Below are positions 8,361 through 61,485 of a DNA stretch of 64,000 bases, one piece after another. How positions within the stretch are numbered: the stretch's first letter is position 1; the number at the start of each line of letters is the position of its first letter. The DNA lies in the IMG/VR virus record IMGVR_UViG_3300021406_000010, positions 32,001-96,000 of that record. The stretch is one strand, 5' to 3'. This stretch comes from a virus. The notes beneath the pieces are model-generated. The model searched no databases. It worked only from the letters and a program-made list of their open reading frames with translations, and was not told where the DNA came from. The position numbers and the translations under genes were made by a program.

Positions 8361-8503
8361 GCATCCCCTCGAATTCCTGCGAGGACAACGGGTGCCCGGC
8401 CTGCGGGTCCGACGACTACAGCACGGAGCCAGGGGACGACGGCACCCCAGACTACGAAAACGGCCTGAAGACCTGCGATGAGTGCGGGGAGTCCTGGATA
8501 TGA
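8357..8503 (+). CDS. Small zinc-ribbon protein (48 aa)
   Basis: CPACGS...CDECGESW; ATGA overlaps at both ends. Confidence 0.55.
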   Translation: MSIPSNSCEDNGCPACGSDDYSTEPGDDGTPDYENGLKTCDECGESWI

Positions 8504-13761: not shown

Positions 13762-14292
13762 CGGGGTGTCCCTCCGCTTTGGTCTCCTGACCCTTCTGCG
13801 GCCCGTGACGTCACGGGCAGGTAACGGTAACGCGGTGATAACGGCCACGACGAGCCGCAGGTCACGGTGCCGGACCGGCGGGAGCCGCCCGGCCTCCAGG
13901 AAGTCCGTCCACATGCCCGCCACCTCGTCCGCGTCCAGCCCGGCCGCCACCCGCGCCGCCGACCACCCGGCCAGCTTGCCGTGCCAGCGCTGCCTGGTGC
14001 CCTGGTCGGGCCTGCGGACCGGGACGAGGCCCCTCTGGACGGCCATGTCCACCAGGGCGCGGAGCTGGCTGCGGGTGAGGACCGCCCGGCCGCCGGCGCT
14101 GACGAGGCGGCAGGCCACCTCCAGGACGTCCTCCCCCTCCCCGGCGGCGACCCTGCGCGCTGCGGCGTCAGCGGCGGCGCAGGCGGGGTGGAGCTTGGCG
14201 CCGTGCCAGAACATGACGTCCTCGCCCAGCGTGAACTCGAGCTGGCACCCGCCGCAGGTGAGGCCAGCCTCCCAGGCCGTGATCGTGGACAA
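13762..14292 (-). CDS. Hypothetical protein or N-terminal extension, in frame with the downstream gene
   Basis: TTG 14292 after GGGAGGGAG RBS; CGGC...HPAC motif; no stop before ATG 13761. Confidence 0.45.
13801..13818. promoter_or_regulatory. Perfect 18-bp palindrome
   Basis: GCCCGTGAC|GTCACGGGC, 40 nt upstream of ATG 13761. Confidence 0.5.
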
Positions 14293-14751: not shown

Positions 14752-15378
14752 TCATCCCTCCAGGACCGAGCGGAACGCGGCCACCGTCGAGGCGCGCATC
14801 TGCGCCCGCGTGGCGCCGACGGCGTGCAGGATGGCGGACGGGTGGTAGACGGGCAGCAGCAGCCACGGCCCGGCGTCGTCCCGCAGGCGCCCGCGCCACT
14901 CGGGGAGGCTCCCGGGGTCGCCGGTGACGCAGTTCCAGGCGGGCGTCCCGCAGGTGATGACCACCTGCGGCCCGGTCAGGCCGATCTCGGCCAGCACCCG
15001 GCCGCGCGAGGCCTGCACCTGGAACGGGTAGGGGGTGCGGTTGCCGGGCGGGCGCCACGGCAGCACGTTGGTGACGTAGCACTCCCCCCACGGGATTCCC
15101 GCCTCGCCGAGCATCTTCTGCAGCAGCCGGCCGGCGGGTCCCACGAAGGGGGCGCCCGCTTCCTCTTCCTCCTTGCCCGGGGCCTCCCCGACGATGACGA
15201 CGGGGGCGTTCGGCGGCCCGCAGCCGCGCACCAGGCGCTTCCCGTCCGCTGCCTGCCGCAGGACCGGGATGGCCGCGTACCGCTCCCACAGGGCGTCCAT
15301 GGCCTCCTCGCGGGTGGTCACGCACTTCTCCAGGGCGTATTGCTCGTACGGCTCCACGAGCGACTCCCCGCCGTTCAC
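14752..15378 (-). CDS. Uracil-DNA glycosylase, family 4-like
   Basis: VGEAPG.EE...G.PFVGPAG.LL, YVTNV..WRPPGNRTP, YHPSAIL. Confidence 0.9.
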   Translation of the reverse strand: MNGGESLVEPYEQYALEKCVTTREEAMDALWERYAAIPVLRQAADGKRLVRGCGPPNAPVVIVGEAPGKEEEEAGAPFVGPAGRLLQKMLGEAGIPWGECYVTNVLPWRPPGNRTPYPFQVQASRGRVLAEIGLTGPQVVITCGTPAWNCVTGDPGSLPEWRGRLRDDAGPWLLLPVYHPSAILHAVGATRAQMRASTVAAFRSVLEG

Positions 15379-16532: not shown

Positions 16533-16813
16533 ATGCCCGTCACCACCAGGCGGAATGAGCGCTTCACCATCAGGCCGAGTATCTCGTCCAGCTGCCACCG
16601 GGTGGCGGCCGGGACGTCAAGCGCCAGCGGCGGGAGCGCCCCCGGCAGCGCGGACGCGGCCAGGACCACGCCGCTGAATCCCTCCAGGCAGGGAGTCTCC
16701 TCCACCCGCAGGAACTCCTCGCCCCGGTCGCGCAGGATGCGCTCCGCCTGCTCCCTGAGGCCGGGCGCGCAGAACGCCATCGGCGGCGGGACCGGGTCAT
16801 CGGGGCTGGTCAT
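16529..16813 (-). CDS. Hypothetical protein (94 aa)
   Basis: ATG 16813 in ATGA overlap with the stop of the giant ORF. Confidence 0.6.
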   Translation of the reverse strand: MTSPDDPVPPPMAFCAPGLREQAERILRDRGEEFLRVEETPCLEGFSGVVLAASALPGALPPLALDVPAATRWQLDEILGLMVKRSFRLVVTGI

Positions 16814-19800
16814 GGCAAGGATCCTCCTCCCAGCGGGAAGCCTACATCGTCCTTGCCACGGCGCACCCGCAGCTCGGCGAACCGCACCCCCACCGGAGGC
16901 CGGGCGGCCGACATGTCCTCGCCATCTTCCAGGAACCCGAGCGTCATGTGCGGCTTCCACTGCCGGTGCTCACTGGCCGACAGGTCTTCCAGGGCCTCCC
17001 GCAGCGCGGTGATGCCAGGCGCGTGCACGTGGGTGAACGCCGGGACCTTGCCGTCGTCGCCCGGCGGGAAGGACCCGACCCCCTGCAGCACCGCGTCCAT
17101 CGGGGGATGCGCGGCGGCGGCGGTCCTGGCCCGGTCGCAGGCGGCGGCGTACGCCTCGTCGCTGACGTCCGCCCCCAGGTAGACCAGGGTGACGTGCTGG
17201 TGGTCGACGGCGCCCGGCAGCGGCTCGACCAGGCCGCTGGGGACGGGCAGGTAGATCATCCCGGAGCGGGGCTTCAGGTCATAGCCGGAGGCGGCGGTGA
17301 CCGGCGGGAGCTGGTGGACGCGCCTGCGGTAGTTGCTGACCAGCGCCATGGCGTCGGCATGGTGGCGCAGGAAGTCGCCACCCGATCCCGGCTCGATCGC
17401 GTCGAGGGCGGTGGCGTAGTGCCGGGCGAACTCCGGGCCGTGCATTACCTCGTCGGGGAGCCTGGCCAGCGGGTCCAGCCCGGCATGGTGGATGTGCAGC
17501 AGGTGCCCCGCCTCGTGGGCGACGGTGCCCCGGCGCCAGTGCTCCGGGTACAGCAGCGCCACCCCGGGGTGCCCGTCGATGAGCGCCACGCTGGAGGCAC
17601 CGCGTCGCGGGTCCTGGTGGGCGATGACGGAAGCGCGGGCCGCCTTGGCCGCCGGGTAGCCGCCAGCCGCCAGGGCGTGGCGCAGGATGGCCGACCCTGC
17701 CTCGCTCGGCATGCCCAGCAAGCCGCTGAAGTCGTCGGGGTCTCGGTCGTCGAGCGGGGCGGCGAGGGCGGGATGGTCAGCGTAGGCGCGATCCTGGGCG
17801 ATGCGGATGACGGCCTTGTGCGGGCGGTCGGCCGCCCAGGCGCTCAGCGGGCTCCACGCTCCACCGCGCGCTGACTCCCGGCGGCGTGGCTCCAACGATG
17901 AGGCCGTCCTGCTTGGAGGCTCATGCGGAACCCTGCTCGCGATCTTGCCCTGGTTCAGGATGATGTGGCCGACGAAGTCCTTGGGCGGGTGGAACTCCAG
18001 CACGTCGGCGCCGGCGTCCCTGGCCTGCTGCACGCTGTCCACCATTGCCTTCAGGCTAGAAAGGCCAGCCTTCCGGACCACGGCGTCTGGCGCCATCTCG
18101 ATGCGGTCCACTTTCGGCCCGTAGAGCCTGGCGACCTCAGGATCGTGGGACACGAACAGCCCGGCGTTGTCCCAGGCGTCGATGCCCGTCAGGGCGCGCT
18201 CCTTGCGCCCGTAACCGTGGTAATAGACGCGAGGGCGGACTGGCTTCCGCGCTGCCCCTGACTTGCGCACCTTCTCCCACGACGCGGCGAATCCCGGGTG
18301 CAGCGGCAGTCCCTTCATCTCCCCTGGGGTGAACCACCCGTGGCCGGAAGACTCCCAGTCGGCGTCCGGGTCGCCGCCGCGCGGGGCGAACCGGGAGGGG
18401 GAGTCCATCACCACGGTCGAATAGGCCCATCCGCCATGATCGTCAGTGTGGGTCCGGACGTGCCGCAGGCCGCCCGGCAGCGGCCCCAGCTCCTCCTCGG
18501 CCTCCCGCCGCGCCCCTTCCTCGGGGGACTCGCCGCGTCGCAGCGCCCCGCCGGGCGTCGACCAGGTGCCCCCGTGCTGGACGTAAGGGGAGCGGTGCTG
18601 CAGGAGGTAGCGGTACTGGCCGTCATCGCCCCGGTGGCGGACGAGCAGCCCGGCCGCGCCCGCCGTGCCCCAGTGGGAATGGCCCTGGGCGCAGGTGGTG
18701 TAGTCTTCGGTGTCGCCCTCGTCGTCATCCTCGCCTGGCATCGAGGTGACTTCCATGCCGATCCGGCGGATGACCCGGACGGGGTGCTTGCTGGTGAAGG
18801 TGCTTGCGTTGAAGTCGTGACGGTAGGGACCGAGCGGCTCTACCTCGTAGACGTACGCCTGCTCTCCCGGTCGCCCGGGACGGCCGAAGGCGGGGATCGC
18901 CCCGGTAGCCAGCTCGGCGAATGTCCGGGCCGATGACTCACGATCGGTGAAGTACACGCTGCCTGGGTCACTCCCCTTCATCGTCCTCTCGTGAGACTGC
19001 GCGGGGTCCAGGACGTGGCCGGGATCATAGGGCTTGTTCGTGCCGTGGAAGAAGCGCTGTGGCTCCTCCTCCAGCGCCGACGTGACGTCCATGCCGTGGC
19101 TGAGGCGATGATGCGTCCAGGCGGGGTCATCCTTCAGGCGCGTCCTGGCCTGGTGATCCGGGGGCGCCCAGGAGATGCCCATCAGCCGGACGGGAGCGCC
19201 CTTGCGGATCGGCACCTCGGCGTGATCCTCGTGCCCCCTCTCGTCATAGCGGGTAGTGCCCAGCTCGTCGAGGACGCCAGGGTCTTCCTCGATGTGCTCG
19301 CGGGCAGGCGCCTGGGCGTGCAACATGACCGGAGTGGCCCCCGGCACGGGCCTGGTGATGAGGTTCCCCTCGGCATACCCCTTGGCCGTCTCCCGGTTCC
19401 CGGACCAGTTCACCCCCGTGCCCTGGCCGACGTGGCGCAGCAGCAGCCGCGCCCGCTGGCGCACCGGCAGGGACTCATCGTGCACCTGCTCATGGACGCC
19501 GGGCGGCAGCAGGACGCTCAGCCCCCGGTGCACCTGGGCTGGCAGCCTGACGTGCTCCCACTCGGTGATCGCCGGGTGCTCGTAGCGCCACATCCGGTGG
19601 TCGGCCTCGTGCCGCCCGCTGCCGCCGTCGTTACGGTCGCTTCCGCAGTAAGGGCACGGGTCCGGCTCGTCTTCGTCGCCTAGCGCTGCCTCGGCCTGCA
19701 GGCCGCCGCCGGTCATGTCGCGGGAGGCAGTGCGGCCTGGCAGGTTCCGCTGGTGGCTCTCCCAGTCGCCGTAGGCGCCCCCGAGGGTCTCGTCTTCGTC

Positions 19801-22713
19801 CCACAGGCGCCTCGGGATGGGCATCAGGTCAGGCTGGCGCCCTAGCGGCACCTCGCGCACGACGCGCAGCGGGTGGCGCGACATCCAGGAGTTCGGGGCC
19901 GGGCCGAACTCAGGGTCGTGCCCGCTGACCTCCTCCCTGTCAGGGAGCACGGGACCAGTCGGCTCGACCTCGAAGACGCGCCCCTGGTGGGGGGTCTTGG
20001 CCTGTGCGGCGAAGTCTGCCGCCTCGTCCCGGTCGTCGGTCGCGTAGACGTGCTCGCGCTTCCTGTCCCAGGTCCTGTCCGGGGAGTTGCTCGGGTGACC
20101 GGGGCTGATCAGGTCGCCTGGCCTGAAGGGGAAGCGGGCACCGTGGTAGATCGGCACGCTCTCGTCGCGGGCGGCCGTGTGCTGCCCGGCCGGCGGCCCG
20201 TCGCCGATCATGTCCCTGAACCGCTGGTGGTGGTAGGTGAAGTCGTCCCCGGCGTGCTTCGAGATCTTGTTGAGCACCGCCCCGTAGGCCCGCGCCCACT
20301 CCGGCCCGTGGGACTCCTCGTCCGGCGCGTGCTCGTTCGGCTTCCGGCCATGGGCGAGCAGGACGACGTGGTGGGCGCACTCGTGGGCGGCGGTGCCGTA
20401 GTCCCACATCTGCGGGTGCAGGGTGACGCCGGGATGGCCGTCCAGCCACGCGGGGTTGGACGTCTTCCGCTCCGGGTGCGGGTGCCGGGAGACGAACGAC
20501 CCTTCCGTCAGCTCGGCCGGGTACCCGGCGTGCCGCAGGAGGTGGCCCACCATCTCATCGCCCTCGTCGCCCGTGGGGAAGGGCATGCCCAGCCTCGGGT
20601 GCTGCCGGCGGACCTCCTGCTGGGCCAGGGCAGTAGCGGCGTGCCACGGCTCGTGCCCGCGCAGGCCCCACTCATCCATCTCCCGGTCCAGGTCGGCGGC
20701 GTCGCGGATAAGCGGCTCGTCCTCGGGGACGTGCGCGGCGGTCTTCCCGAACGGGTCGTCGGCCTCCCCGCGCCGCATGTAGGCGTCATACTCGGCCGGG
20801 ACGGCCTTCCGGTGCTCGCGCCAGTGCCGGTAGCTGGCGAGGTAGTCATCCCCCGGCTGGTAGTCGCCGTGCTCCTGGGTCCGGACGTACGGCACGGGAA
20901 CACCAAGCCGCCAGGCGACCGCCGCCCGGTGGTGGCCGCCTCCTACTTCCCAGGCGCCCTCGTCATGGTGGGCGACCTCAACCGGGTGCTCGAAGCCGTG
21001 CTCGCGGACGTGTGCCTCCAGGTCTGCCATGTAGCGCGGCTCGCGGCGCAGCAGGTCAGCAGTTACCCCGGCGATGTCATGGTGAGGGTAGTCCGTGAAG
21101 GTCAGCCGACTGAGGTCGCCAGGGTGCAGGACGCCAGACTCTGCCTCATCCTCGTCGTCTAGCGCGGCGGTCTTGGGCGCGTGGGCCAGCTCCCGGATGC
21201 GGTGCAGCACCCCGCCCGGAGCGTATGCGACGTACTTTTCTGTCACGTTTGAAACGTCGTCCCAGCCGGTGCCATCCGGCCCGAACGCCATGTCGCGGCC
21301 CGCGTGCAGCCGGTCCCACAGCGCCCTCGCCTCGCGGGTGCGCAGCGGCTCCTCCAGCCGCAGGATGGCCCGCGCCTCGGCCAGCACCGCGCGGGCCTGC
21401 GCCAGGACGGCCGGGGGAAAATCGGCGAGCGAGTGCTGCGGGAGGTGCGGCGGGGAAACGCTCCAGCGCATGGCGGTGACGTCGTAGGCGGCGTAGGGCC
21501 TGATGGCGGTGACGCCGTCCTCGCCGCCGCCGATCGCCTGGTTGCAGTAGGCGGTGAGCGACCAGGCACCCCCGAACGGCGGGTGCCAGTCCGGGTCGTT
21601 GAACCGGGCGCGGAGCACCGCGTTCAGGGACTGCGTGACCTGGTCATCGCTCATGGCCGACAGGGCGGGTGAATGGGACCGGGCGCAGTCATAGTCCGCG
21701 CCTATGAGCACGTCCAGGTCCTGCGCCTCGTCGTTGGGGCGGCTGCCCGCCCACTCCGACGCCGACCCCCCGGCTATGTAGACCCGCAGCCAGGACTGCC
21801 AGTCGCTGCTCGCGATGCCGGAGTCCGCCCGCAGTGCCTGGTCCAGGCGGGTCATGATGGCCTCGCGGACCTCCGGGCGAAGCTGGCGGTCCTCATCGAA
21901 CAGGCGGGGGTCAAGGCCGGTGGTCGCCGAGAAGATCCCGGAGGAGGGCGACCAGCGGGCTGCTGCCGTCCTGTGCCGGTGCAGCTCCGGCATCAGGCAA
22001 CCCCGCGCCCTGGTCACCCGGACCTCCTCCAGCCCGGCATCCCGTGCCGCCATGTAGCGGTGCTCGCCGTCTTCCAGGATGGTCCCGTGCGAGCAGGTTA
22101 CGAGGGAGCCGGGGACCGTGCCATGGTCCTCGGCGTAGCCGCGCAGGGCCGCCTGCTCCCGGGCAGCCCCTGCCGCTGCTTCGTCACCGTATCTCTTCTG
22201 CGGCTCGTCCTCGGGATGGCGGTACTCCCACACGTCGCCCAGGGTCATCCCCGGGTGGTTCATCGAGGCTACGCCGTGCAGGTCATCAAGCGGCACCATC
22301 GCGCCCCGGTCCTGCGGGCCGGGGCCTTCCGCCGCCCCGGTCACGCTTTTGGGCGGAACGTGCTCCCGCAGGACGCGCACGGGATGCCTGGAGCGGTACG
22401 CCTCTGGCTCGATGCCGCCTTCCTGCAGCTCCGGGTCGGGCTCCATCGGCCCGGTGGGCTGGACCACATACACGCGAGGGGTACTCCCGGGGTTCGCGCG
22501 CACCGCCTCGTCAGCGAAGAAGTCCGCCATCTCGTGCGTGGTGGAGGCGTAGACGTGCTCCCTGGCCCCGCCCTCGCCGATGGCCCCGAGGTCATCGTTC
22601 GCGGGAAATCCGGGAGCGACCAGGTCACCGCGCCTGAGCTTGCGGTGTGTGCCGTGATACCAGGGGCCGCCCGCGTCCGCCCCCCCGGTCACGCTTTTGG
22701 GCCAGGCTCCCAT
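16810..22713 (-). CDS. Giant polyvalent protein B (1967 aa): Arr-like ART, ParB-like, nucleotidyltransferase, ParB-like, zincin, Arr-like, ART-like, Arr-like, Nudix, ART-like, zincin, 2H phosphoesterase
   Basis: Motifs in order: WYHGT..VYVVQPTG; DGEHR; GGSAS..DLDV; GGHHR; HECAH..HGPEW; IYHGA..VFEVEPTG; VHRG..AEVP; FFHGT..VYEVEPLG; GGALRRGESPEEGARREAEEELG; YYHG..GLFVS; HEAGH..HGPEF; HVTL..HMTL. Confidence 0.88.
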   Translation of the reverse strand: MGAWPKSVTGGADAGGPWYHGTHRKLRRGDLVAPGFPANDDLGAIGEGGAREHVYASTTHEMADFFADEAVRANPGSTPRVYVVQPTGPMEPDPELQEGGIEPEAYRSRHPVRVLREHVPPKSVTGAAEGPGPQDRGAMVPLDDLHGVASMNHPGMTLGDVWEYRHPEDEPQKRYGDEAAAGAAREQAALRGYAEDHGTVPGSLVTCSHGTILEDGEHRYMAARDAGLEEVRVTRARGCLMPELHRHRTAAARWSPSSGIFSATTGLDPRLFDEDRQLRPEVREAIMTRLDQALRADSGIASSDWQSWLRVYIAGGSASEWAGSRPNDEAQDLDVLIGADYDCARSHSPALSAMSDDQVTQSLNAVLRARFNDPDWHPPFGGAWSLTAYCNQAIGGGEDGVTAIRPYAAYDVTAMRWSVSPPHLPQHSLADFPPAVLAQARAVLAEARAILRLEEPLRTREARALWDRLHAGRDMAFGPDGTGWDDVSNVTEKYVAYAPGGVLHRIRELAHAPKTAALDDEDEAESGVLHPGDLSRLTFTDYPHHDIAGVTADLLRREPRYMADLEAHVREHGFEHPVEVAHHDEGAWEVGGGHHRAAVAWRLGVPVPYVRTQEHGDYQPGDDYLASYRHWREHRKAVPAEYDAYMRRGEADDPFGKTAAHVPEDEPLIRDAADLDREMDEWGLRGHEPWHAATALAQQEVRRQHPRLGMPFPTGDEGDEMVGHLLRHAGYPAELTEGSFVSRHPHPERKTSNPAWLDGHPGVTLHPQMWDYGTAAHECAHHVVLLAHGRKPNEHAPDEESHGPEWARAYGAVLNKISKHAGDDFTYHHQRFRDMIGDGPPAGQHTAARDESVPIYHGARFPFRPGDLISPGHPSNSPDRTWDRKREHVYATDDRDEAADFAAQAKTPHQGRVFEVEPTGPVLPDREEVSGHDPEFGPAPNSWMSRHPLRVVREVPLGRQPDLMPIPRRLWDEDETLGGAYGDWESHQRNLPGRTASRDMTGGGLQAEAALGDEDEPDPCPYCGSDRNDGGSGRHEADHRMWRYEHPAITEWEHVRLPAQVHRGLSVLLPPGVHEQVHDESLPVRQRARLLLRHVGQGTGVNWSGNRETAKGYAEGNLITRPVPGATPVMLHAQAPAREHIEEDPGVLDELGTTRYDERGHEDHAEVPIRKGAPVRLMGISWAPPDHQARTRLKDDPAWTHHRLSHGMDVTSALEEEPQRFFHGTNKPYDPGHVLDPAQSHERTMKGSDPGSVYFTDRESSARTFAELATGAIPAFGRPGRPGEQAYVYEVEPLGPYRHDFNASTFTSKHPVRVIRRIGMEVTSMPGEDDDEGDTEDYTTCAQGHSHWGTAGAAGLLVRHRGDDGQYRYLLQHRSPYVQHGGTWSTPGGALRRGESPEEGARREAEEELGPLPGGLRHVRTHTDDHGGWAYSTVVMDSPSRFAPRGGDPDADWESSGHGWFTPGEMKGLPLHPGFAASWEKVRKSGAARKPVRPRVYYHGYGRKERALTGIDAWDNAGLFVSHDPEVARLYGPKVDRIEMAPDAVVRKAGLSSLKAMVDSVQQARDAGADVLEFHPPKDFVGHIILNQGKIASRVPHEPPSRTASSLEPRRRESARGGAWSPLSAWAADRPHKAVIRIAQDRAYADHPALAAPLDDRDPDDFSGLLGMPSEAGSAILRHALAAGGYPAAKAARASVIAHQDPRRGASSVALIDGHPGVALLYPEHWRRGTVAHEAGHLLHIHHAGLDPLARLPDEVMHGPEFARHYATALDAIEPGSGGDFLRHHADAMALVSNYRRRVHQLPPVTAASGYDLKPRSGMIYLPVPSGLVEPLPGAVDHQHVTLVYLGADVSDEAYAAACDRARTAAAAHPPMDAVLQGVGSFPPGDDGKVPAFTHVHAPGITALREALEDLSASEHRQWKPHMTLGFLEDGEDMSAARPPVGVRFAELRVRRGKDDVGFPLGGGSLP

Positions 22714-25700
22714 GACCCTTCCGGGCCGTCGCCCGCCGCCGCGATCACCCGCAGCGCCAGGTCATGCACCGCCTCGGCGACCTCCCGGGCGACCGGGGCG
22801 TCCTCCAGCCTGACGGCCACCGCCAGCAGCCGCTCCCCGGTGAACCGCAGGAACCCCGGGATGGCGGCGAGCAGCTCCCGTGCCTCGTCCGCAGCAGTGC
22901 CGGCGGTGATGGCGGCCGGGACCACGTCGGCGACGGGGGAGATGACCATGCCCTGCGAGGCGGACTCCTCGTTGTCGCCGACCCGGCGGATGACGCGCAG
23001 CGGATGCGCGGACTTCCACTCATCGCCGTTGTAGCCGCCCTTCACCTCGCCGGTCGGCGCCACCTCGTAGACGTGGCCGCCAGCGTCCCGGGCGTAGTCC
23101 CGCGCCCCGGTCAGGTCGGTGGTGAAGTGGTTGAACTGCGAGCGCGGTCCCTCGTCGCCCCACGCGTTGGTCGGATGGCCGACAGTGACCTGGCTGCCCT
23201 CGCGCAGCCGCTTCGACCGGCTGCCATGGTAGAAGGGGCCGGTGACCTGCTGCTCCTTGCTGACGTAACCGCCCTCCGGGCCGTGCGTCTGGTACCGCCA
23301 GGTGAACGACGGGGGACCAGGTGGCTCCAGGGCGGCCTCGTGCCGGGAACCGCCGTCGTCCTCGTCCGGCTCGTGCAGGTGCCGGTACTCCTCCGGGACC
23401 GGCATCTCCCGCTTGACGTCGAACCCGGCGCGGCTGCGCACGTCATCGTCGTTGTTGCCGCGCGGCCACCCGTCCTTCAGGTAGAACGGGTCCTTCTCCA
23501 GGTCATCGGCCTTCGGCGTCACCTGGTAGACGCGCGGCGGACGGCCGAGCGTCAGGCTGGCCTTCTCCGCGTAGCCCCAGGCGTGCGCCAGGCCCGCCGT
23601 GGCGTACCCGTGCGTGCCCTCGTGGTCCATCCCGAAAGCGCGGCCACGGCCGGGAGTGACCTCCTGCAGGCCCTCCTCGGTGGTGCCATGGTAGTAGGGG
23701 CCCCTCGCGGGCAGCCCCTGCCGGTGGCGCTCGACGTTCTCGTCCAGGCGCGCCTGCCTGCCTGCAGCCGCCTCCGGGCTGACGTCGAAGGCGTGCGAGC
23801 AGTTAGCGCAGGTGGCCGTGCTCCCGCGACTGCCCGGCTGCCGCTCGCGGCTCCCGCACTGAGGGCACCTCTCCTGCGTCATCAGGGCCAGCTCGCGCTC
23901 GAACTCCGGGGATCGCCTGACCGGCTGGTGCCCCTCCCCGGGGAAGTGATGGACGGGGGCCTTGTGGCTGTCTGAGCAGTTCACGCAGAAGGGGGCCTCA
24001 CCGGGAACGCGCTCCTCGGCCCCGGACGCCTCATCGCGGTGGCGCGCCCACAGGAACCCGTCCAGGTCGCGCTCTGGCGCGATCCTGGTGTGCGGGCCGC
24101 CTTTGGTGGCGGCCGTCACCTCATGCCCCTCCCCGAAGTGCGCCTCCAGCTCCCGGGCCGCCGTGTGCTGCCGTGGCTCGTCCGCGTCAGCGGCATGCGG
24201 GAACCCCGGGTAGGAGGTCCGCTTCCGCTCGCCGCTCGGGTAGTTCAGCGGGGCGGGCCGGTCCTGCGCCTCCGCGCCGTGGAACGGCCCCCTGCGCCCG
24301 TCGGCGAACGGCTCGTCCTCGTGCGGGGAGTAGGCGACGTAGGCGCGGATGCTGGGCCAGTGAGCCGCGTTGGCGCCGTTCGCCCGGTGGTGCCCGTCGG
24401 CCACCTGGAACACGCCGTGGCGGTGCACCAGGACCACCGGGGGAACCTTGTCGCGCTGCCGGTGGTCCCTGAACCCGTCGGCGGCGCGCTTCACGCGGGG
24501 GTCCCACGGCTCGGCCTTCATGTAGTCGATGCGGCTGGTGTCCACCGTGCGCGGGCGGAACCGGATCTCTGACCCCGGGTAGCCGGTGAGCGGGTGCAGT
24601 TCACCGGTGGACTCGGCATAGGGATGTCCTGGCCGGTCGTGGTACAGCTCGGCAGCAGCATCGCCGATGTCCCAGCCGTATCCGTTGCCCGTGTCCGGCC
24701 CGAATCCCTCAGGCGCCCCGTGGACTTCAGGGTCCCCGTACAGGTGCGGGTGCCGCCTCCCGATCTCCTCCCAGGTGAGACCGTCATCGTCTCGGCCAGC
24801 CTCCAGGACGGCCTGGCGGTGCTGCGGGGTGCCCCCCAGCTCGGTCAGCGGCCTGCGGCAGTAGTGGCAGCGCAGCTCCGCCGACGGGTCGCGGACCTCG
24901 TACCGGCCCGAAGACCGGCCAGCAGGCTCCCCGAAGGGGCCGTTCAGCTGGGGCATGTCCCCGCCGGGGAAGATGCCGTGCTCGTCGTGCTCCGGCTCGC
25001 CCTCGGCGAACGTGTGGTGCACCCCGATGCCATGGGCGCGGTCCTCAGCGTGCGACTGCTCGCAGGTGAGGTTGCAGTACCTTCCCTGGTCGTACTCGCC
25101 CCGGTCCCAGCGCTCGTCCCGGGCGCGGTCCCGGGCCAGGGCCGCCTCCACCTCCGGGGAGTGGCCGTCCTCCGGCCAGTGACGCACCTCGGCGCCCTCG
25201 CGGCGGGAGCAGTGCAGGCACTGCGGCACCTCATCTGGGTCGCGCTCGGTGATACCGTCGTCCTCACCCCTGCGCATGGCCCAGGCGAAGCCATGCTCAT
25301 CCTGCTCAGGCGGCATCCGCCGGTAGGACTGATGGTCCTCGTCATCCATGTCGTCCCAGGGCTCGCCATCGTCGTCCTCGCCGCTCGCGGCAGCCTCCAG
25401 GGCGGCAGTGCGCCCGTCGTCATTGCCCTCCAGGTAGCGCATGGCCTCGTCGTGCCCCGGCCCGGCGAACATCCGGTCGATATCGCGGCCGGCATCCCGC
25501 CCGGCCCTCTCGCGGCCCGCCAGCTCGTGGTGCTCGGCCAGCGCCGCGTGCCAGTCGTCGGAAGTGCCCCAGCGGTAGTGGTGCCGGGTGCTATCCGGCG
25601 TGAACGGCTGGTCGCCCTCCACGTGCGGCGGCGTTCCCGGGTCGAGTTCCTTGTGCCGCCAGGCGTCCTCGGTGACCTCCGTCGGGCCGGAGCGCGAGGT

Positions 25701-26460
25701 GACCTTCCCGTGCAGGATGTCCGCCATCGATGACGGGCACTCGGCGCTGTCCGTGCACTCCGCCTGGGTGTGGGGACGCGGCCAGGTCAGCCGGTCGTTG
25801 CAGTACTGGCACTCCTCGCCCCGCACCGGGTCGCCGTACCGGCGCATCCGGCCCCAGGAGGCCCCCTCCATGTCGGAGACGTCCTCCCGGGCCTCGTGCT
25901 CCCACCAGTTCTTGCACGACGGGCACGAGTAGCCTCCCTCGCCCGACCAGGCGTAGCGCGCGTCGTCCGGGCCGCTGACCGCCTCCATCCGGGCGACGGC
26001 CCGCTCGTGCTCGCCGGTGCGGGCGTGCTCCGCCTCGATCCTCGGCCGCAGGTCATCCCAGTACGTCTTGCCCTCGCCGCCAGCGGCCTCGTCATTTGCG
26101 GCAGCAGCTTCCAGGGCGGCCGTGTGCCCGCGCAGGTCGGGAACCTCGCGGATCACCTCGGCAGGATCCTGGGTCGCCCAGTCATGCCCTTGCGCGTCGC
26201 TGCGGTGGCCGATCCAGCCGACCGGCCGTACCTCGTAGACGTGGCGCCCGTACCCCCTTGCCCCCTTGCCGTGCCCGCCGGGCCCCCAGTCGTCCTCGGG
26301 GTGCTCCGTCATGTAGACGTGCTCCAGCGGCTCGTCGGTGAAGTTGCCGGGGTGCCCTGGCTCGACGTGGCCGCCGGGCGCGATCTCGTGCCTGGTCCCG
26401 TGGTAGAGCGGTCGCGGGGCGTCCAGCGGGTGCCGGTGGTCCTCCAGGCCAGAGTCGCTG
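22689..26460 (-). CDS. Giant polyvalent protein A, C-terminal part: Arr-like, Zn-binding modules, ParB-like, Arr-like x2, TraA-like tail (probably continuous with the upstream ORF via a frameshift)
   Basis: LYHGT..VYEVRP; multiple CxxC; VADGHHR; YYHGT..VYQVTP; FYHGS..VYEVAPTG..HPLRVIR; no credible start of its own. Confidence 0.8.
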
Positions 26461-29400
26461 GGTAGTAGCGGTCCTGCGCGCCTTCCGGCCCCCGGGCGTG
26501 GATGACGCCGTAGGTGCCGTGGTTGTAGCTCCACCCGGCCGGGGACGGGGGCGTCCATTCCGGTTCGCCGTTCTCCTCAAAGTGGGCGACCACCGGCGGG
26601 AGGTGCAGGCTGCTCTCGCTCGGCGTCAGCGGCCGGAACGGCCTGCTGGCCTCCGGGTCGTGCAGCACGCGCTCGAACTCCCCGTTCCTCCTGGGAGTGC
26701 CGCCGAAGAAGTCGGTGTGCTCCGAGAGCTGGAAGACGTCCGGCCACTGCCGCTCGCCGGGGAGGCCGCGCTGGGTTTCGTGCTGGTGCGTCGAGTTGGT
26801 GCGCTGGTGCTCACCGGCGTGCCACCGCTCCTGGTTCTTCGGGGACATGTGCAGGTCGGAGGTGCGGGAGTCCATCCCGTGCATGTGGTGCATGTGGTCG
26901 CGCAGCTCGCCCTCCCTGGGCGGCTCCACGTAGGGCAGCGCCGCGCGCCTGGCGGCCTCCGCCGCCGCCTGGCTCCTCTCGTACGCGTCGTCCTCATCCT
27001 CGGTGTCGCGGCCTTCATCATCGTCATCCTCGTGGCCACCCTGGATGTCGTCGTCCCAATCGTCCTCGTCCATGGCAGTGGCTTCCAGGACAGCCTCGTG
27101 GTGGCGGCCCTCCTCGTCGAACAACGGGTCCATGTGCCGCTGGCCGCCGGGCCACTGGCGCTGCGCCTCGTCCTCGGGCAGGCACTCGGCGCCGGTGTGC
27201 CGCTGGGTGACGTCCACCTGGTCCTCACCGAAGGCGATGGCACACCGGTTGGCATCCTTCTCCGAGCTGAGGCCATCACACGGCGACTTCTCGAAGGCGT
27301 TCCCGTACACGATCCCGTCATGGCCCTGAGACCGCAGGTGGGCGATATGCCGCTGGGCTATCTCGTACTTCTCCGGGTGGGCGTTCAGCCAGCCGGTCGC
27401 GTACGGATGCACCTGCCGGTGCTGGCGCATGTAGTGCTCGCTCGGCTCGTCCTGGCGGCGCATCCGCTCGCCGTCGTCGGCGTAGTCGTAGGCCACCCCG
27501 ACGTCAGACCCTTCGTCGTGGTACTCCTTCAGCTCCGGGTCCAGGTGCCGCTCGATGTGGTTGCCGGCCTTCCACTCCCGCTCGTATGCCTCCTGGTCCA
27601 TGTCGTGCTCGGAGGCGTAATGCTTCGGGCTCCTCATGAGGAGCCGGGCGTGGATGACGTTCTCCTGCGGGCCGCCCTGCGGGAAGCCGCCGGATGGGTG
27701 GTCGCCGTGGGCGAACTGCTCGGCCACCTTGTGGCAGGCGGTGAAGTGGTGGCCCAGCAGCGTGTTCCAGTGCGACGTGTCGTCGGGGTCGTCCTCGTAC
27801 TCCAGGTCGCTGTACGGCCGGTCGCCGCCGAAGTCCCCGAACCGGTGCGGGGAGCCGTGGAACCACTCCAGTCCCCGGGTGTGCGGGTTCGGGTACGGGG
27901 CGCGGCCCGGTGCGGGATCATGGAGATCATGGCGCTCGCCCTCCGAGGCGAGCGAGGATCGCAACGGGTACGCGGCTGCCGCTGCGGTCACCGGCCTTGT
28001 CCTTCCCGTGCTGGGGCGCGCCGCGACGGCCTCGCGCCGGGCGGGGGCCGAGGGAGGCCCCTCCGGCGGGTCGCGGCGCTCGCGCCCCTTCAGCCCGCGC
28101 GCCCACTTCTTGCCCTGTTCCGTCTGGTCCTTCGAGTGCCTCGCCTTCGGGGACATCTCCTGCGACCAATCCCACATCGCGGTGGCCAGGCCCCGGGCCT
28201 GGTGGTCGCGCCCGTCGCCGAGCAGGGACCCCCTGGCGGTGTCGTCCTCGTCGCCGGCCACGTCCATGTGGTGGACCCAGCCGGTGGCGCCGAACCAGTT
28301 CAGGCGGCCGACGACACGGCCCTCGGGGGTGTGCGCCTCGATGAAGTGGCGGGGCTTACGCTCCCCCATGTCCTCCGTGCGGTAGCGCAGCGTGTAGTAC
28401 CCGAAGGGCCGCTCATCGCCGTCCCGCTGGCGCGAGGCGCGCTTAGGCGACAGGGGCGGCTCCTCGTGCGGTGCCACGATCGCGGGCGGCTCGTCGCGGG
28501 CCGCCTCCCTCGGCGGGACGCGCATCTTGTGGCTGCAGTACTCGTGCATGTGCAGGGCCTCGCGCGGCTCGCCCCAGTAGCCCCACTCCTGCAGGTCGTC
28601 GCCGTTCCCGTTGCGGACGTCCTGCGCCCGGACGGTGGTGCCCCAGATGTGGTACCTGCCAGGGTGGTCAGCGGGCAGGCTGCCCGACGGCGGGTCGTTC
28701 ACCTCGGCGGCAGTCTGCTCGGCGTACTTCCGGTTCAGGGCCACCCAGTCGCCTGGGTTGAACTGGCCCCGCTTGGCGTTGCGGGACTCCGGGTTGAGCG
28801 CCGGGGCGGCCCGCCAGATGCGGACCTTCGCGCCGGGCTTGCCGCGCGCCCTGCGGATCATGCGCAGGTGGTCATGGCCGAACTGGCCCTCGCCGAAGTC
28901 ATACCACTCAGGGTGGTCGTAGACGTCGGCGGGGAAAGTGTCGCCCTGCGTCAGGTCGTGCAGCGGCGCAGCCTCGTCGTTCGGGCGGTGGCTGACGCCG
29001 TAGTCCTCCGGGGTGGCCGCCGCCTCGAAGTGGGCCACCACCTCCGCCACCGGGGCGGCGGGCGGCTCGGCCGCCGCCTGGTGCCGCTGCTTCCACCGCC
29101 GGATGCGCGGGTCCTCCTGCTCCAGGTGCTCGCGCGTGCCGCCCGCCTCGCCATGCCAGGCGTTCAGGGCCTCCTCCACGTGCCGGGGACCGACGTGGGC
29201 GGCCAGCTCCCCGGTCTTGGGGTCGGTGTCCAGCCCGGTGACGTCGTGGGCGTACTCCCCGGTGGCCTGGTGGTGCAGCTGCAGGTACATGCCGCCGAAG
29301 CTGCGGCCCGTCCAGCCGGACGGCCTCCCAGACGGAAGGCGGTGCTCCAGTTCGTAGTACGGCTCGCCGTCGTCCCTGAACCTGATCTTGCCGCGCCCGC

Positions 29401-30820
29401 CCTCGTAGCGGGTCATCAGCTCCTGGCCGTTGCGCAGCGCCCGGTCGGACTGGCGGGACTCCTCGGTGCCGCCGGGGTCCTCGATGTCCTGGACCTTCCT
29501 GAACAGAGCATCACCGAACGCCTTCCCCGCCTCCTGGGACTGGCGCTTGTGGTCGATGTAGTCCCGGCTGGCCTCGGCCTGGTGCTGGGTCTCGAAGCCC
29601 CGGGCGTTGCCGGTCATCGCGTGGCGGCCCGCGTTGTCGACGACGTGGAAGCGATTGGTCTGCGGGTGGCGGACCACCTCGTACGGGCCGTGCCACTCCT
29701 CGCTAGGGCTGTAGCCCTGCGGCTCGTGCACGCGCGGCTCCGGCCGGGCGGCCAGCTCCAGGTCATAAGCGCTGACCCGGGAGTGCGGGAACTGCGGCGG
29801 GTTGCGGCGCAGGTGCTCCCGGTAGGCCTCGTGCAGCCCGACGGCGTCGACCTCTCCGGGATGCGTGCGGCGGACCTCGTCCGGCTCGCGACGGGTGGTC
29901 AGCCGGTACCAGTCCTGCATGGCGCTGCTGTTGCCGGAGAACATGCCACGGCTGCCGTCGTAGGCGCCCTCGTTCGGGTGGGTGGACCTGCCCTCGCGGT
30001 CCACGACGTGGTAGGTGGCGTTGCGCTCCCGCTCGCTGTAGTCGCGGCCCTTCTCGCGCTCCGGGTCCCGGGTCACGTAGTAGGGGCCGTGGTCGGGGGC
30101 GGTCAGGTGCGGGTGCTCCTCCAGCCTGCGGTTACCCGGGTCGCGCTGGCCATCGCGCATCCGGGCCAGGAAGTGCCCCGCCACCGGGGACTCGCCCGTG
30201 GGGGTGGCGAACACGTCCTCGCTCTCGGGAACATCGGCGGCTGCCTCGAAGTGGCCGAGCAGGTCATCGCCCGCGCTGGCCTTGCGGAGTTGCCGCTGAT
30301 GCGCTTCCATGCGCTCATAGTCCTCACGCGTGAAGTCCCAGTCCGGCCCCCATCCGTGCGGGCTGCCCAGGTAATGCCTGCCCTCCTGGTAATCCCCATG
30401 GTCGCCGCTCCACTCCTCGTGCAGCCTGACGACGCGCAACGGATGATCAGTAATCCGCGATCCACCGTGTCGCAGCTGGCCCCGCCTGGTGCCCCCAAGG
30501 TTCTCCGGGTCATGCATGTGCGGGCCTGTCGGCTCTACCTCATAGACTCGCGCTCGCCCGGACTCCCCGTACCGGTCAGCTCCTGGCGGCTCGTGGGCAC
30601 CGTCAGCGAACCAGCGAGCCTGGCCGGGGTTGACCGACATGTAGAGGGGCTTGCCTGTCACTGACTGCCACTTCGGCAGCCTGCCCACGTGCTCGTAGTT
30701 CCGGTGCGCGGCGGCTTCCTCGCCAGTCAGCAGGTCCCCGGGATGCAGTTCGTACCGCGTGCCGTGAAAGAAGGGGCCGCGCTCCTCGTCGAGGAAGCCT
30801 GCCCGCCGCTCATCGCCCAT
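26309..30820 (-). CDS. Giant polyvalent protein A, N-terminal part: Arr-like ART, unknown repeat domain, ART-like, GNAT, PolyVal-type ART, His-rich module
   Basis: FFHGT..VYEVEPTG..HPLRVVR; IWRA..GDWV..YA..EWGY; HQARGLATAMWD..HS..QT..G..WA; WFHGS..GHHFT..GHDGIVY.N..E; ATG 30820 lies 7 nt after a -10 box. Confidence 0.85.
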   Translation of the reverse strand: MGDERRAGFLDEERGPFFHGTRYELHPGDLLTGEEAAAHRNYEHVGRLPKWQSVTGKPLYMSVNPGQARWFADGAHEPPGADRYGESGRARVYEVEPTGPHMHDPENLGGTRRGQLRHGGSRITDHPLRVVRLHEEWSGDHGDYQEGRHYLGSPHGWGPDWDFTREDYERMEAHQRQLRKASAGDDLLGHFEAAADVPESEDVFATPTGESPVAGHFLARMRDGQRDPGNRRLEEHPHLTAPDHGPYYVTRDPEREKGRDYSERERNATYHVVDREGRSTHPNEGAYDGSRGMFSGNSSAMQDWYRLTTRREPDEVRRTHPGEVDAVGLHEAYREHLRRNPPQFPHSRVSAYDLELAARPEPRVHEPQGYSPSEEWHGPYEVVRHPQTNRFHVVDNAGRHAMTGNARGFETQHQAEASRDYIDHKRQSQEAGKAFGDALFRKVQDIEDPGGTEESRQSDRALRNGQELMTRYEGGRGKIRFRDDGEPYYELEHRLPSGRPSGWTGRSFGGMYLQLHHQATGEYAHDVTGLDTDPKTGELAAHVGPRHVEEALNAWHGEAGGTREHLEQEDPRIRRWKQRHQAAAEPPAAPVAEVVAHFEAAATPEDYGVSHRPNDEAAPLHDLTQGDTFPADVYDHPEWYDFGEGQFGHDHLRMIRRARGKPGAKVRIWRAAPALNPESRNAKRGQFNPGDWVALNRKYAEQTAAEVNDPPSGSLPADHPGRYHIWGTTVRAQDVRNGNGDDLQEWGYWGEPREALHMHEYCSHKMRVPPREAARDEPPAIVAPHEEPPLSPKRASRQRDGDERPFGYYTLRYRTEDMGERKPRHFIEAHTPEGRVVGRLNWFGATGWVHHMDVAGDEDDTARGSLLGDGRDHQARGLATAMWDWSQEMSPKARHSKDQTEQGKKWARGLKGRERRDPPEGPPSAPARREAVAARPSTGRTRPVTAAAAAYPLRSSLASEGERHDLHDPAPGRAPYPNPHTRGLEWFHGSPHRFGDFGGDRPYSDLEYEDDPDDTSHWNTLLGHHFTACHKVAEQFAHGDHPSGGFPQGGPQENVIHARLLMRSPKHYASEHDMDQEAYEREWKAGNHIERHLDPELKEYHDEGSDVGVAYDYADDGERMRRQDEPSEHYMRQHRQVHPYATGWLNAHPEKYEIAQRHIAHLRSQGHDGIVYGNAFEKSPCDGLSSEKDANRCAIAFGEDQVDVTQRHTGAECLPEDEAQRQWPGGQRHMDPLFDEEGRHHEAVLEATAMDEDDWDDDIQGGHEDDDDEGRDTEDEDDAYERSQAAAEAARRAALPYVEPPREGELRDHMHHMHGMDSRTSDLHMSPKNQERWHAGEHQRTNSTHQHETQRGLPGERQWPDVFQLSEHTDFFGGTPRRNGEFERVLHDPEASRPFRPLTPSESSLHLPPVVAHFEENGEPEWTPPSPAGWSYNHGTYGVIHARGPEGAQDRYYPATLAWRTTGTRWTPRDRSTTGPGTRSRPAATSSQGTPATSPTSRWSTST

Positions 30821-30827
30821 GCCCTCA

Positions 30828-30850
30828 ACGATAGCAAGAAAACCTGCATT
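30828..30850 (-). promoter_or_regulatory. Conserved promoter/operator motif copy (leaderless, upstream of polyvalent gene A)
   Basis: AATGCAGGTTTTCTTGCTATCGT on the - strand. Confidence 0.7.
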
Positions 30851-30904
30851 AGTCATAGCCGCCTCCCGCAACTTCCGGGCGGGAAGAATAGCGGGAGGCG
30901 GGGC

Positions 30905-31189: not shown

Positions 31190-33310
31190 TCAGGACCGGT
31201 GCCGCCGCATGGCGGCCGGGGAGCGGCCGAGGCCCGGCGGCATCCGGGACCCGGGGACGGGGCGGGTGCCACGGGACAGGCCGCCCCGGCCGGTCATCCC
31301 GCCGAGGGACGTGGCGTAGGGGTTCTGCGCCTCCGGGTTGAACCGCTGCAGCGCGTCGTAGTCGCCCATCGCCGCGTGCGGGCGCAGGGACCGCAAGTCA
31401 GAGCTGATGTAGGCCTTCATCTGCTCGCCCAGCAGCCGGGCCACGGTAATCGAGCAGGCGTCGGCGATGTCCTTGGTCCGCACCGGGCCGGAGTCCGCGC
31501 ACACCACCTTCGCCTGGCCCTCCGGCTTCTGCACGAACCGGAGCTCGTCCCGCAGCTCCCCGTGCGGGGGGCAGTGCGCCAGGCCCATGTTGAGGCACGC
31601 CTTGAACGTCTCCCAGGTCGCCCAGTTCAGGGCGGCGGTCGCGGTCCGCTCCCACACCATCACGTTCTTCTGGAGATGGGCGCGGCGGACCATCTTCTGC
31701 AGCGCCTGGACCGACGCGGCGGCGTTCCACTGGTCGAAGGACAGCTGGCCCGGCTGGAACGGCAGGACGACGTTGGCCATGATCCAGTCGCGGACCTCGT
31801 CGTAGTCGATCGTGTGGCCCTCGAAGTCGGCCGGGTCCCAGAAGTGCACCAGGTCGATGACCGCGTGGGCCAGCTGCGGCTCGCCCGGCACGGGGAGGCC
31901 CGGCTCGGCGTGCGCCACCACCAGGCCGAACCGGCAGTTCACCGACGACGGGTCACCGTGCGCGGTGTAGGAGACGGACAAGGGGCCGCGCGCCTGCATG
32001 ACCAGCTCGGGCCGTCCCCAGGCGGGGTCGCGGCCCTGCCACGGGGCGAACATGTCGTCGATCCGGGCGGCGTTCAGGTAGGCGTCGAGGGCAGTCTGCC
32101 AATCCGATCGCCTCTCGACGGCGAACGCGTCAGGGTTGGCCTTCTCCTCCCGCGCCATCTCCTCGTCATAGGCCTGGATGGCACCCCGCAGGGACTGCAG
32201 CACCGGCAGGCGCTCCGGGTCATGCTCACCGAGGTCGCCAGTGAAGCCCTCCGGGAACAGCGGCAGCAGGTGCGCCCGCTCCCAGTCCTCGTAGATCGCC
32301 CAGGACTCCAGCTGGACCATCAGCTTGGTCGGGTAGGCGGGCATCACCTCGCCCGGCTCGGGGGCGGGCTCGGACTGCAGGGAAAGGTTCCACAGCTCGT
32401 AGAAGCCGCCGGTCATCTCCCAGGTGGACGAGGGCAGCACGATGAACCCGTCGGTGCCGAACTGGTCGAGCGACGGCCGGGCGGCCTGGTAGATGACCTT
32501 GAACTCCCGCGTCACTCCCGCGTTCTTGACGTGGGCCGCCTCATCAAAGCCGAGGATGCAGCCGGCCGGGCCACGGGGGGCCAGCGGGGTCGACTCGCGG
32601 GGCACGATCCGGAAGGTGGCCGCGTCGCGGGACGAGTCGATGCCTCGCCGGGCCAGCTCGTGCATCCGGACGAAGTCGTACGGGGCGTAGACGGTCAGCG
32701 ACTCGGCCTGCGCCTCGGAGATGTAGGGGGTGAAGCACGGCGCGGTGGTGATCACCGAGTACAGGTCGCCCCACAGGTTCTCCTTCGCCTGCTCGCGCTT
32801 CCCGGCGAAGCAGGCGACGGCCAGCGCCTTCTCCTGGGAGATGCCGTAATGGGCCTGGGGGTTGCCGAGGGACAGGTAGTTCCACAGCACGTACGACATG
32901 CACAGGGCCGAGAAGTACCCCTTGGAGCCGCGCCGGCCGAACGCCAGGATCAGCTCGGGGAACCACCGGTAGCCGCGCTTCTTCAGGTAGGCGATCCGCT
33001 CGTAGAGGTCAGGCTGGATGCCCTTGGTGCGGGCGGAGAACTTCCCGTCGGCGGCGTCCGGGTTGGTGTCGCGGAACCGCTGCTGCCACTCCGCGATCAC
33101 CCGCCGGTCGTAGTCGGTGAACAGGTCATCGCGCAGGAACGCGATCTTGAGGAGGGTCGACTGACGGGGGTACAGGCCCGGCTTGGCCAGCCACTCCTCC
33201 CCCGTCACGAACGTGACCGGGTCCGGCACCGGCGGCCCGTCGTACCACCCCAGCATGTCCAGCGGGCCGACGGCGGTGGTGTCAGGCGCCTGCCAGCGGC
33301 TGATCGCCAC
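31190..33310 (-). CDS. terL: Terminase large subunit
   Basis: LYPRQ adenine motif, GRRGSKG Walker A, ILGFDEAAH Walker B, nuclease acidic motifs HGDPS / FDQWN / KDIADA. Confidence 0.85.
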   Translation of the reverse strand: MAISRWQAPDTTAVGPLDMLGWYDGPPVPDPVTFVTGEEWLAKPGLYPRQSTLLKIAFLRDDLFTDYDRRVIAEWQQRFRDTNPDAADGKFSARTKGIQPDLYERIAYLKKRGYRWFPELILAFGRRGSKGYFSALCMSYVLWNYLSLGNPQAHYGISQEKALAVACFAGKREQAKENLWGDLYSVITTAPCFTPYISEAQAESLTVYAPYDFVRMHELARRGIDSSRDAATFRIVPRESTPLAPRGPAGCILGFDEAAHVKNAGVTREFKVIYQAARPSLDQFGTDGFIVLPSSTWEMTGGFYELWNLSLQSEPAPEPGEVMPAYPTKLMVQLESWAIYEDWERAHLLPLFPEGFTGDLGEHDPERLPVLQSLRGAIQAYDEEMAREEKANPDAFAVERRSDWQTALDAYLNAARIDDMFAPWQGRDPAWGRPELVMQARGPLSVSYTAHGDPSSVNCRFGLVVAHAEPGLPVPGEPQLAHAVIDLVHFWDPADFEGHTIDYDEVRDWIMANVVLPFQPGQLSFDQWNAAASVQALQKMVRRAHLQKNVMVWERTATAALNWATWETFKACLNMGLAHCPPHGELRDELRFVQKPEGQAKVVCADSGPVRTKDIADACSITVARLLGEQMKAYISSDLRSLRPHAAMGDYDALQRFNPEAQNPYATSLGGMTGRGGLSRGTRPVPGSRMPPGLGRSPAAMRRHRS

Positions 33311-59754: not shown

Positions 59755-59955
59755 CGGGTCCTCCTGATAACGGCCCGCTGTACGTCCCGGGCTCTATCGC
59801 CGGGACCGTCACCAGCGGCCCCGGGACGACGGGGCCGCGAGGGGCGGGGGTGCTGCACTGCACCCTACCGGGGAACACCAGGATCCGCTGGGCTTGCGTG
59901 AAGCAGGCAAGGACGGGACTGGCGGCGAGGGCCGCCGACGCCAGCTGGACGGCCA

Positions 59956-60213: not shown

Positions 60214-60227
60214 TCAGGCTCCTTCCG

Positions 60228-60488: not shown

Positions 60489-60494
60489 GGCAGC

Positions 60495-60517
60495 ACGATA
60501 TCAAGAAAGCCTGTATT
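60495..60517 (-). promoter_or_regulatory. Conserved promoter/operator motif copy
   Basis: AATACAGGCTTTCTTGATATCGT. Confidence 0.72.
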
Positions 60518-60529
60518 GAGATAGCCTGG

Positions 60530-61354: not shown

Positions 61355-61485
61355 GCCTTAACTATATTAAGACGACACTATCGCTGTCAGGGAGAATCGC
61401 CTCGAACTTACAGCTTTAACTGCCCCTGACGGATCGCCCGAACTAGGACAATCACATCCGAAGCGTATGTAGTCGACTATACTCT

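Follow-up and report, generated by a model that had tools for sequence, protein, structure and literature searches.

Two giant polyvalent proteins of an uncultured soil actinophage carry a recurrent peptide tag that is probably a head-protease site

Two giant genes

The window, the whole stretch of DNA analysed here, comprises 64,000 bases (bases 32001-96000 of the 166,488-bp IMG/VR record IMGVR_UViG_3300021406_000010) from an uncultured soil actinophage, a kin of Myrna/Bxz1 and RedWattleHog and, distantly, of phage G. Two of its genes encode giant modular proteins, polyproteins A and B, whose modules are joined at a short recurring peptide tag. Positions refer to the window unless given as genome positions, and lengths are in amino acid residues (aa). 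The initial annotation had described two giant coding units of 1967 and about 2710 aa. The first is the single open reading frame (ORF) of B; the second is 2722 aa long, is divided in this contig between two ORFs in different frames (26309-30856 and 22689-26558), and starts at ATG 30856 rather than at 30820.

22689-30856, minus: polyprotein A, a single gene for 2722 aa in 13 modules, its frameshift confined to this contig
16810-22713, minus: polyprotein B, 1967 aa, 12 modules, its start overlapping the end of A
26455-26465, minus: one base missing here that other assemblies of this phage have, an assembly error or a private variant
30797-30856, minus: N-terminal leader of A, an N-T-G-F-L-like stretch ending in the variant tag RRAG

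The frame switch is placed at about 26460 by codon-model scoring, and the homolog in a relative is continuous across the break. Near-identical intact proteins of 2722-2725 aa are present in independent Logan, ENA and JGI assemblies; some match the read-through of A everywhere except at the break, and others also differ at a few residues elsewhere. Because these intact copies exist, A is one gene from which one base is missing in this contig. Programmed recoding was considered and rejected, since the site has neither a slippery heptamer nor a TTA and intact copies exist. A pattern scan of metagenome DNA for the junction gave no match. The leader stretch of A recurs in several relatives. B and its relatives alike begin with P-K-S-V/L (22690-22713 in B), words that return after the first module of B (22340-22365).

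Module composition

Module borders were drawn from BLAST matches against relatives, giving 25 modules of 92-396 aa. The initial annotation's figure of about 25 enzyme modules is right as a count, although only about 20 are enzyme-like by fold; 11 are ADP-ribosyltransferase (ART)-like. Firm assignments comprise seven Arr-like ARTs, a NUDIX hydrolase, a 2H phosphoesterase and three ParB/sulfiredoxin-like modules. The weaker ones are an ART-PolyVal-like module, one ART-like by language-model neighbours, two ART-like by motif, a GNAT, a Pol-beta nucleotidyltransferase and two HExxH zincins.

30287-30796, minus: A1, Arr-like ART (Pfam PF12120, 5e-7, and alignment)
29084-30271, minus: A2, a module of about 390 aa, no family named, preceded by KAS and LLGHFE
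28511-29071, minus: A3, ART-like by motif only (phrog_2579), preceded by HQAA and VVAHFE
28037-28435, minus: A4, GNAT-like acetyltransferase, weak (Acetyltransf_1, E 0.077 in one homolog)
27101-27979, minus: A5, ART-PolyVal-like (PF18760 in 3/12 homologs, best 3e-4), preceded by VTAA
26594-27088, minus: A6, acidic and His-rich, no family named
26127-26575, minus: A7, Arr-like ART, holding the frameshift
25413-26114, minus: A8, Cys-rich, no family named, preceded by HTAA
24819-25400, minus: A9, Cys-rich, no family named, preceded by RTAA
24168-24806, minus: A10, ParB/sulfiredoxin-like (DGHHR)
23343-24107, minus: A11, zinc ribbon and Arr-like ART, preceded by HTAA and VTAA
22974-23330, minus: A12, Arr-like ART (PF12120, 7e-4), preceded by HEAA
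22692-22967, minus: A13, C-terminal helical domain
22354-22692, minus: B1, Arr-like ART
21973-22338, minus: B2, ParB/sulfiredoxin-like
21175-21960, minus: B3, Pol-beta-type nucleotidyltransferase-like, with invariant G, S and D-x-D, preceded by RTAA
20746-21162, minus: B4, ParB/sulfiredoxin-like, preceded by KTAA
20182-20733, minus: B5, zincin-like HExxH metallopeptidase (SprT-like, E 0.007, and motif), preceded by KTAA
19735-20169, minus: B6, Arr-like ART (PF12120, 8e-15), preceded by HTAA
19087-19722, minus: B7, zinc ribbon and ART-like, preceded by RTAS
18751-19074, minus: B8, Arr-like ART (PF12120, 2e-7), preceded by the variant VTSA
18268-18738, minus: B9, NUDIX hydrolase (PF00293, 7e-13), preceded by the variant VTSM
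17911-18246, minus: B10, ART-like by motif only, with a homolog inside a relative's protease-scaffold protein
17302-17898, minus: B11, second zincin-like HExxH metallopeptidase (SprT-like, E 0.056, and motif), preceded by RTAS
16813-17289, minus: B12, 2H phosphoesterase (PF13563, 6e-12), preceded by VTAA, with one interior RTAA in a helix

The ART, NUDIX and 2H modules exceed the Pfam cut-off; the ParB-like modules are recognised by PDB profile, and ART-PolyVal in homologs. The Arr-like copies are 30-43% identical to one another, and, judged from sequence, macromolecular targets are as plausible as rifampin for their acceptors. PDB profile searches with the families of A3, A5 and B7 gave no sequence match. 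Profile comparisons between the ART-like families were not significant, so that A3 and B10 are named from motifs only. The neighbours of B7 in the Atlas (DUF4765, DRAT, NarE and Arr, at 0.85-0.92) provide a lead only. A2 has no match in the ESM Atlas. For B3, the fold matches are weak (E about 0.01, Z 5.6); a stand-alone homolog is gp39 of Streptomyces phage BRock (L069:19965-20954), and the match covers almost exactly the span delimited by the tags. No MuF match was found for the polyproteins in Pfam or PHROGs, and no ArdC-N domain was detected. MuF is a common virion anchor of polyvalent proteins, though not a universal one, and the leader and the C-terminal helix of A could take its place. 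The helix is that of A13, a candidate anchor, and similar-looking tails end polyprotein A in relatives when compared by eye (BLAST gives no match).

The tag at module boundaries

The modules are interchangeable units, shuffled among relatives and joined at a protein-level tag, [K/R/V/H]-[T/E/Q]-A-[A/S]. All 13 linker examples quoted in the initial annotation are present. That annotation placed the tag at nearly every boundary, which is correct if variants are counted: the strict tag lies at 14 of the 23 internal boundaries and a one-residue variant at 7, leaving 2 with neither. Among the strict matches, 15/17 are at boundaries and 2 are interior. This tally was made by hand, and the A8/A9 boundary was set by the motif alone.

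The core form of the tag, [KRH]-T-A-[AS], occurs 10 times in A and B against 0.5 in shuffles (19-fold) and 30 times in 17 polyproteins of relatives against 3.1 (9.5-fold), whereas in 215 other proteins of the genome it occurs as often as expected (6 against 6.1, 1.0-fold). The broad motif, [KRHV][TEQ]A[AS], is enriched 6-fold in A and B and also 2.2-2.7-fold in non-head proteins. It is therefore partly Ala-helix background, and the claim that the motif exceeds an Ala-rich background holds for the core form, which alone is specific.

The predicted enrichment at boundaries over interiors was tested with the ends of BLAST matches as boundaries, and it is beyond chance, also in the held-out polyproteins of relatives. 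Of the core tags, 15% in the relatives and 35% here fall well within a BLAST match, against 76% after rotation of the tag positions (0/500 and 1/500). The boundary effect remains when the tags are masked. In a motif-blind scan, the top boundary words are TA, TAA, KTA (20 near ends, 0 inside) and RTA.

A DNA recombination scar or a mere Ala-rich linker background would be an alternative origin of the tag. The enrichment of the broad motif in non-head proteins, the G+C content of about 71% and a mild boundary enrichment of AA[AS] by itself all agree with it. However, the core tag stands out from the other proteins of the genome, KTA is absent from interiors, and the 90 tag sites examined are encoded by as many as 61 different 12-mers, in which every synonymous Thr and Ala codon is in use and no DNA word is dominant. 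This variety of codons indicates that selection acts on the peptide and not on the DNA. A scar or background origin is extremely improbable and is largely refuted.

A second element, LLxHF(E/A), is enriched about 50-100-fold and is found at module starts and at many protein N-termini. It may be a loading signal, by analogy with T4, which has a capsid-targeting sequence. The element LEA, which the initial annotation had listed as a frequent addition to the linker, is at background in the relatives (0.96-fold) and is rejected as a general element.

The head protease and the tagged head proteins

A prohead protease encoded elsewhere in the genome had been anticipated, and one is present.

genome 158775-162770 (L001:3776-7771), minus: protease-scaffold gene, which begins with the head maturation protease

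The protease matches phrog_18299 (1e-20), and its predicted model (pLDDT 91.5) has the clan SH assemblin-type barrel fold. The closest fold matches are T4 gp21 (Z 10.6, root-mean-square deviation 2.7 over 127 residues) and the proteases of varicella-zoster virus (Z 9.7) and human cytomegalovirus (Z 7.5), the next unrelated match having a Z of 5.9. Foldseek alone is weak (E 0.01), and a PDB profile search with the protease gave no sequence match. His59 and Ser117 are invariant in 51 protease sequences and, from their positions, are likely to be catalytic.

The initial annotation treated the linker as a feature of the two giant genes; the tag is, rather, a lineage-wide signal of head proteins. 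In this phage, tags of a related kind border the head protease and occur in the N-terminal arm of the capsid protein and in the scaffold region. In most of 22 relatives a K/R-x-A word stands just before the protease domain, often with tandem copies after it, and another is found in the N-terminal arm of the capsid protein; in phage G gp19, such words lie on both sides of the protease. The core tag occurs 50 times in the protease-scaffold proteins of relatives (260 to 3240 aa long) against 3.6 expected (14-fold). Tags are also enriched in the head proteins of Myrna (13 against 2.6) and in RedWattleHog gp8/9/12 (12 against 1.4), unlike in the other proteins of these phages. Homologs of A1, A2, A3, A5 and B10 are situated between protease and scaffold in three relatives (L019, L020 and L021), A2 being among the modules found in such fusions. 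Since they are part of the protease-scaffold polypeptide, these modules are in the prohead, next to the protease. Homologs of A6 and B7 belong to the neighbouring Myrna-gp96-like protein of relatives. Myrna gp78 (L070:12942-14375), annotated as 'ParB C-terminal domain', is a two-module mini-polyprotein, whose halves resemble the ART-like modules A3 (homologous to its C-domain) and B7 and are joined by R-S-A-S.

The protease-scaffold protein of this phage holds cargo modules of its own (phrog_3666, DUF7178), bounded by the same tags. A third modular head-region protein of about 1500 aa, homologous to Myrna gp96 and RedWattleHog gp12, is encoded across the contig junction (genome 165495-166488 plus 1 to about 3600, minus) and has ParB-like and GNAT-like inserts by motif.

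The embedded zincins B5 and B11 might cleave the chains in cis or after injection, given that two HExxH modules are present and that a model of metallopeptidase autoprocessing has been published for polyvalent proteins (PMC5512222). Several polyproteins of relatives, however, have tags and lack HExxH. In Myrna, RedWattleHog and phage G, moreover, capsid and scaffold proteins bear the tag, which also borders the serine head protease. Cleavage by the zincins is quite improbable on these grounds.

The tag might also serve for docking or targeting and be cut in part or not at all, or be left over from a time when the modules were separate head cargo, each with a tagged propeptide, before their fusion; the chains would then be packaged and injected largely whole. 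N4 virion RNA polymerase, ArdC and TraC1 do travel full length (PMC5512222), LLxHF stands at the start of whole proteins as well as of internal modules, as expected of fused former genes, and some boundaries have a degenerate tag or none. This is nevertheless unlikely, because internal tags are kept across divergent relatives despite the synonymous change described above, and because tags occupy the release-site position between protease and scaffold, where herpesvirus proteases cut. From the sequences compared, the tag is probably the site of the head protease.

If cutting is real, it could still serve assembly: the acidic chains would fill the prohead core and then be fragmented and cleared out as scaffold is, with enzymes that act in the producer cell or hitch-hike. 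Asp and Glu make up 14-18% of the relatives' polyproteins, tags are densely packed in low-complexity head proteins that resemble scaffold, and SPN3US heads are mostly cleared of cleaved propeptides (PMC10052503). Such a role is rather improbable, since the polyproteins have one tag per folded domain and avoid tags in interiors, whereas degradation sites would be dense; relatives also differ greatly in module content, as is typical of conflict effectors, and catalytic-type motifs are retained.

Erwinia phage Yoloswag has a distant homolog of the protease and no enrichment of K/R-x-A, so the tag is not universal for the family. Its head and scaffold proteins (L072:13758-19672) are rich in Ser-Glu-Ser words (7 against 1.7), a pattern chosen after it had been seen. 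The contrast suggests a clade-specific preference for small residues and a possible different cut code in Yoloswag.

Genome and gene neighbourhood

The two ends of the virus record share an overlap of 144 bp, and the genome is therefore circular and probably complete.

31190-33310, minus: large terminase, directly upstream of polyprotein A on the same strand
9630-14292, minus: three acidic, Pro-rich genes downstream of the polyproteins, carrying the same tag

The terminase is nearest to those of Gordonia phage RedWattleHog, Rhodococcus phages Finch and E3 and cluster C mycobacteriophages (30-33% identity). The portal, head protease, cement and major capsid genes are on the same strand, outside the window, and the capsid protein matches phage G gp27. 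Chains of about 940-2800 aa, usually two, also lie behind the terminase in 8/10 related contigs examined. The three acidic genes have no family match; by eye they are like Myrna gp87 and RedWattleHog gp5/gp8 of the terminase-portal region. A promoter and terminator scan gave nothing informative.

Other genes of the window include a uracil-DNA glycosylase family gene (14752-15378) between polyprotein B and the head-region genes and, by motif, ORFs resembling a C5 cytosine methyltransferase (8500-9525, plus) and a DNA polymerase III alpha subunit (42480-45938, minus). Upstream of the portal, at genome 12450-15321 (L002), seven small paralog-like genes form a run; two of them open with LIRHFA, the same element as at polyprotein starts, and they are possibly a family of small head cargo. 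The terminase of one relative (L059, G004, 58359-61379) is interrupted in frame by about 330 extra codons, probably an intein.

Comparison with known systems and a proposed pathway

By domain set, shuffling and gene context, A and B belong to the polyvalent proteins of phages and conjugative elements, which have 2-15 distinct domains per polypeptide (Iyer 2017, PMC5512222). Packaging of such proteins and proteolytic release of their domains, chiefly by a zincin metallopeptidase, were proposed in that study, so that 'new system', as the initial annotation put it, is an overstatement; no junction motif is given there (PMC5512222). NUDIX and ART domains are also known as fusions to portal, MuF and capsid peptidase, and ARTs are found in virions (PMC9503650). 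The likeness to polyvalent proteins lies in the many small domains per chain (ART, zincin, GNAT, Pol-beta nucleotidyltransferase, ParB, NUDIX and 2H), in genes beside the terminase and head genes, and in shuffled architectures. What differs is the repeated tag, which would tie the modules to a prohead serine protease in trans, and the unusual presence of seven Arr-like ART copies.

The prohead proteases T4 gp21 (Alt and the internal proteins, IPs), phiKZ gp175 and SPN3US gp245 (PMC10052503) share the protease fold and a short P3-x-P1 motif common to protease, capsid, portal and ejection proteins. Maturation of head cargo by these enzymes is established, with cleavage after Glu and, for the most part, loss of an N-terminal propeptide from proteins that have one function; here the predicted cut follows Ala and one chain would yield about a dozen products. 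Herpesvirus assemblin/UL26 (PMC4498786) has the same fold, a protease fused to its scaffold with a site right after the protease, and x-x-Ala/small sites. It differs in host domain and in the third catalytic position, which by sequence looks acidic here and is not His; the herpesvirus sites release scaffold, and those of the polyproteins would release enzyme cargo. Phages of the cluster C/AA/CX type (Myrna gp78, gp87, gp96 and gp97; RedWattleHog gp8, gp9, gp12 and gp13) have the same tag and homologous terminase, portal, protease, cement and capsid. The cultured ones are without enzyme chains of 2000-2800 aa, and the tag is unannotated in them. The literature covered, which included few subscription papers, holds no head-protease tag that divides enzyme chains, and no cleavage motif is reported in it for this lineage, including cluster C phages and phage G.

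The initial annotation read the two proteins as polyproteins that are packaged into the head, cut at the linkers by a phage protease and released as host-takeover or anti-defence enzymes. That reading is partly supported, by the boundary enrichment, by the prohead protease in the genome, by the tags around it and in the capsid protein and by the modules inside protease-scaffold proteins of relatives; packaging, cutting, release and the activities themselves are predicted. In the proposed pathway, A and B would be late polyvalent proteins associated with the head of an actinophage of the Myrna/RedWattleHog type. Their entry into the prohead would perhaps depend on the N-terminal leader, on the LLxHF element or on the C-terminal helix. 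During head maturation the head protease would cut the tags, most likely after Ala (P3-x-Ala/small): the Ala does not vary, whereas the first tag position (P3) may be K, R, V or H, and proteases with this fold recognise P3-x-P1 words. The tolerance of K, R and V at P3 argues against a cut after Lys or Arg. Sites of such enzymes include A-X-E in SPN3US (PMC10052503) and, as predictions, YLQA-T and VQA-S in pseudorabies virus (PMC4498786). Cutting would leave folded domains of 12-45 kDa in the head, to be ejected with the DNA and to act early by ADP-ribosylating, acetylating, nucleotidyl-transferring or degrading nucleotide signals. One long gene would thus load many enzymes per targeting event, with recombination swapping them. 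Packaging of both chains and their division into single domains appear rather likely; that the products act as injected effectors is evenly balanced.

Several points weigh against this pathway. Five modules have no assignment and 4-5 a weak one, the two boundaries without a tag are accompanied by seven with variants only, and the relatives and BLAST matches are not independent samples, so that the counts overstate precision, with their direction unaffected. The four annotated head proteins of this genome have only 2 core tags against 0.4 expected (8/200 shuffles), those of RedWattleHog have 0, and the set of nine head proteins was partly picked after tags had been seen. Fold does not set specificity, and the top fold match, T4 gp21, cuts after Glu. 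About 80% of the remaining head proteins of SPN3US are uncut, and its cuts mostly remove propeptides (PMC10052503). Literature searches on phages of this lineage turned up neither proteomic nor biochemical results.

Implications

The loading of polyvalent proteins, and the question whether cleavage follows, have awaited an answer since 2017, and a readable cut code makes both testable; the R-S-A-S junction between the same module types in the cultured Myrna gp78 offers a direct test of cutting. The tag gives the exact borders of about 25 candidate effector domains for anti-defence screens in actinobacteria, and it could serve to load proteins into phage heads. A bolder and tentative reading, a little short of an even chance, is that the head protease is a true polyprotein processor, with an LLxHF-type loading element and an x-T-A/A cut site as a portable grammar. 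Any enzyme cassette could then be recombined into the giant cargo chains or the protease-scaffold protein, and each virion would deliver about 20 separate injected effectors, a strategy otherwise typical of RNA viruses. The tag also predicts the specificity of the clade of prohead proteases to which those of cluster C mycobacteriophages and phage G belong.

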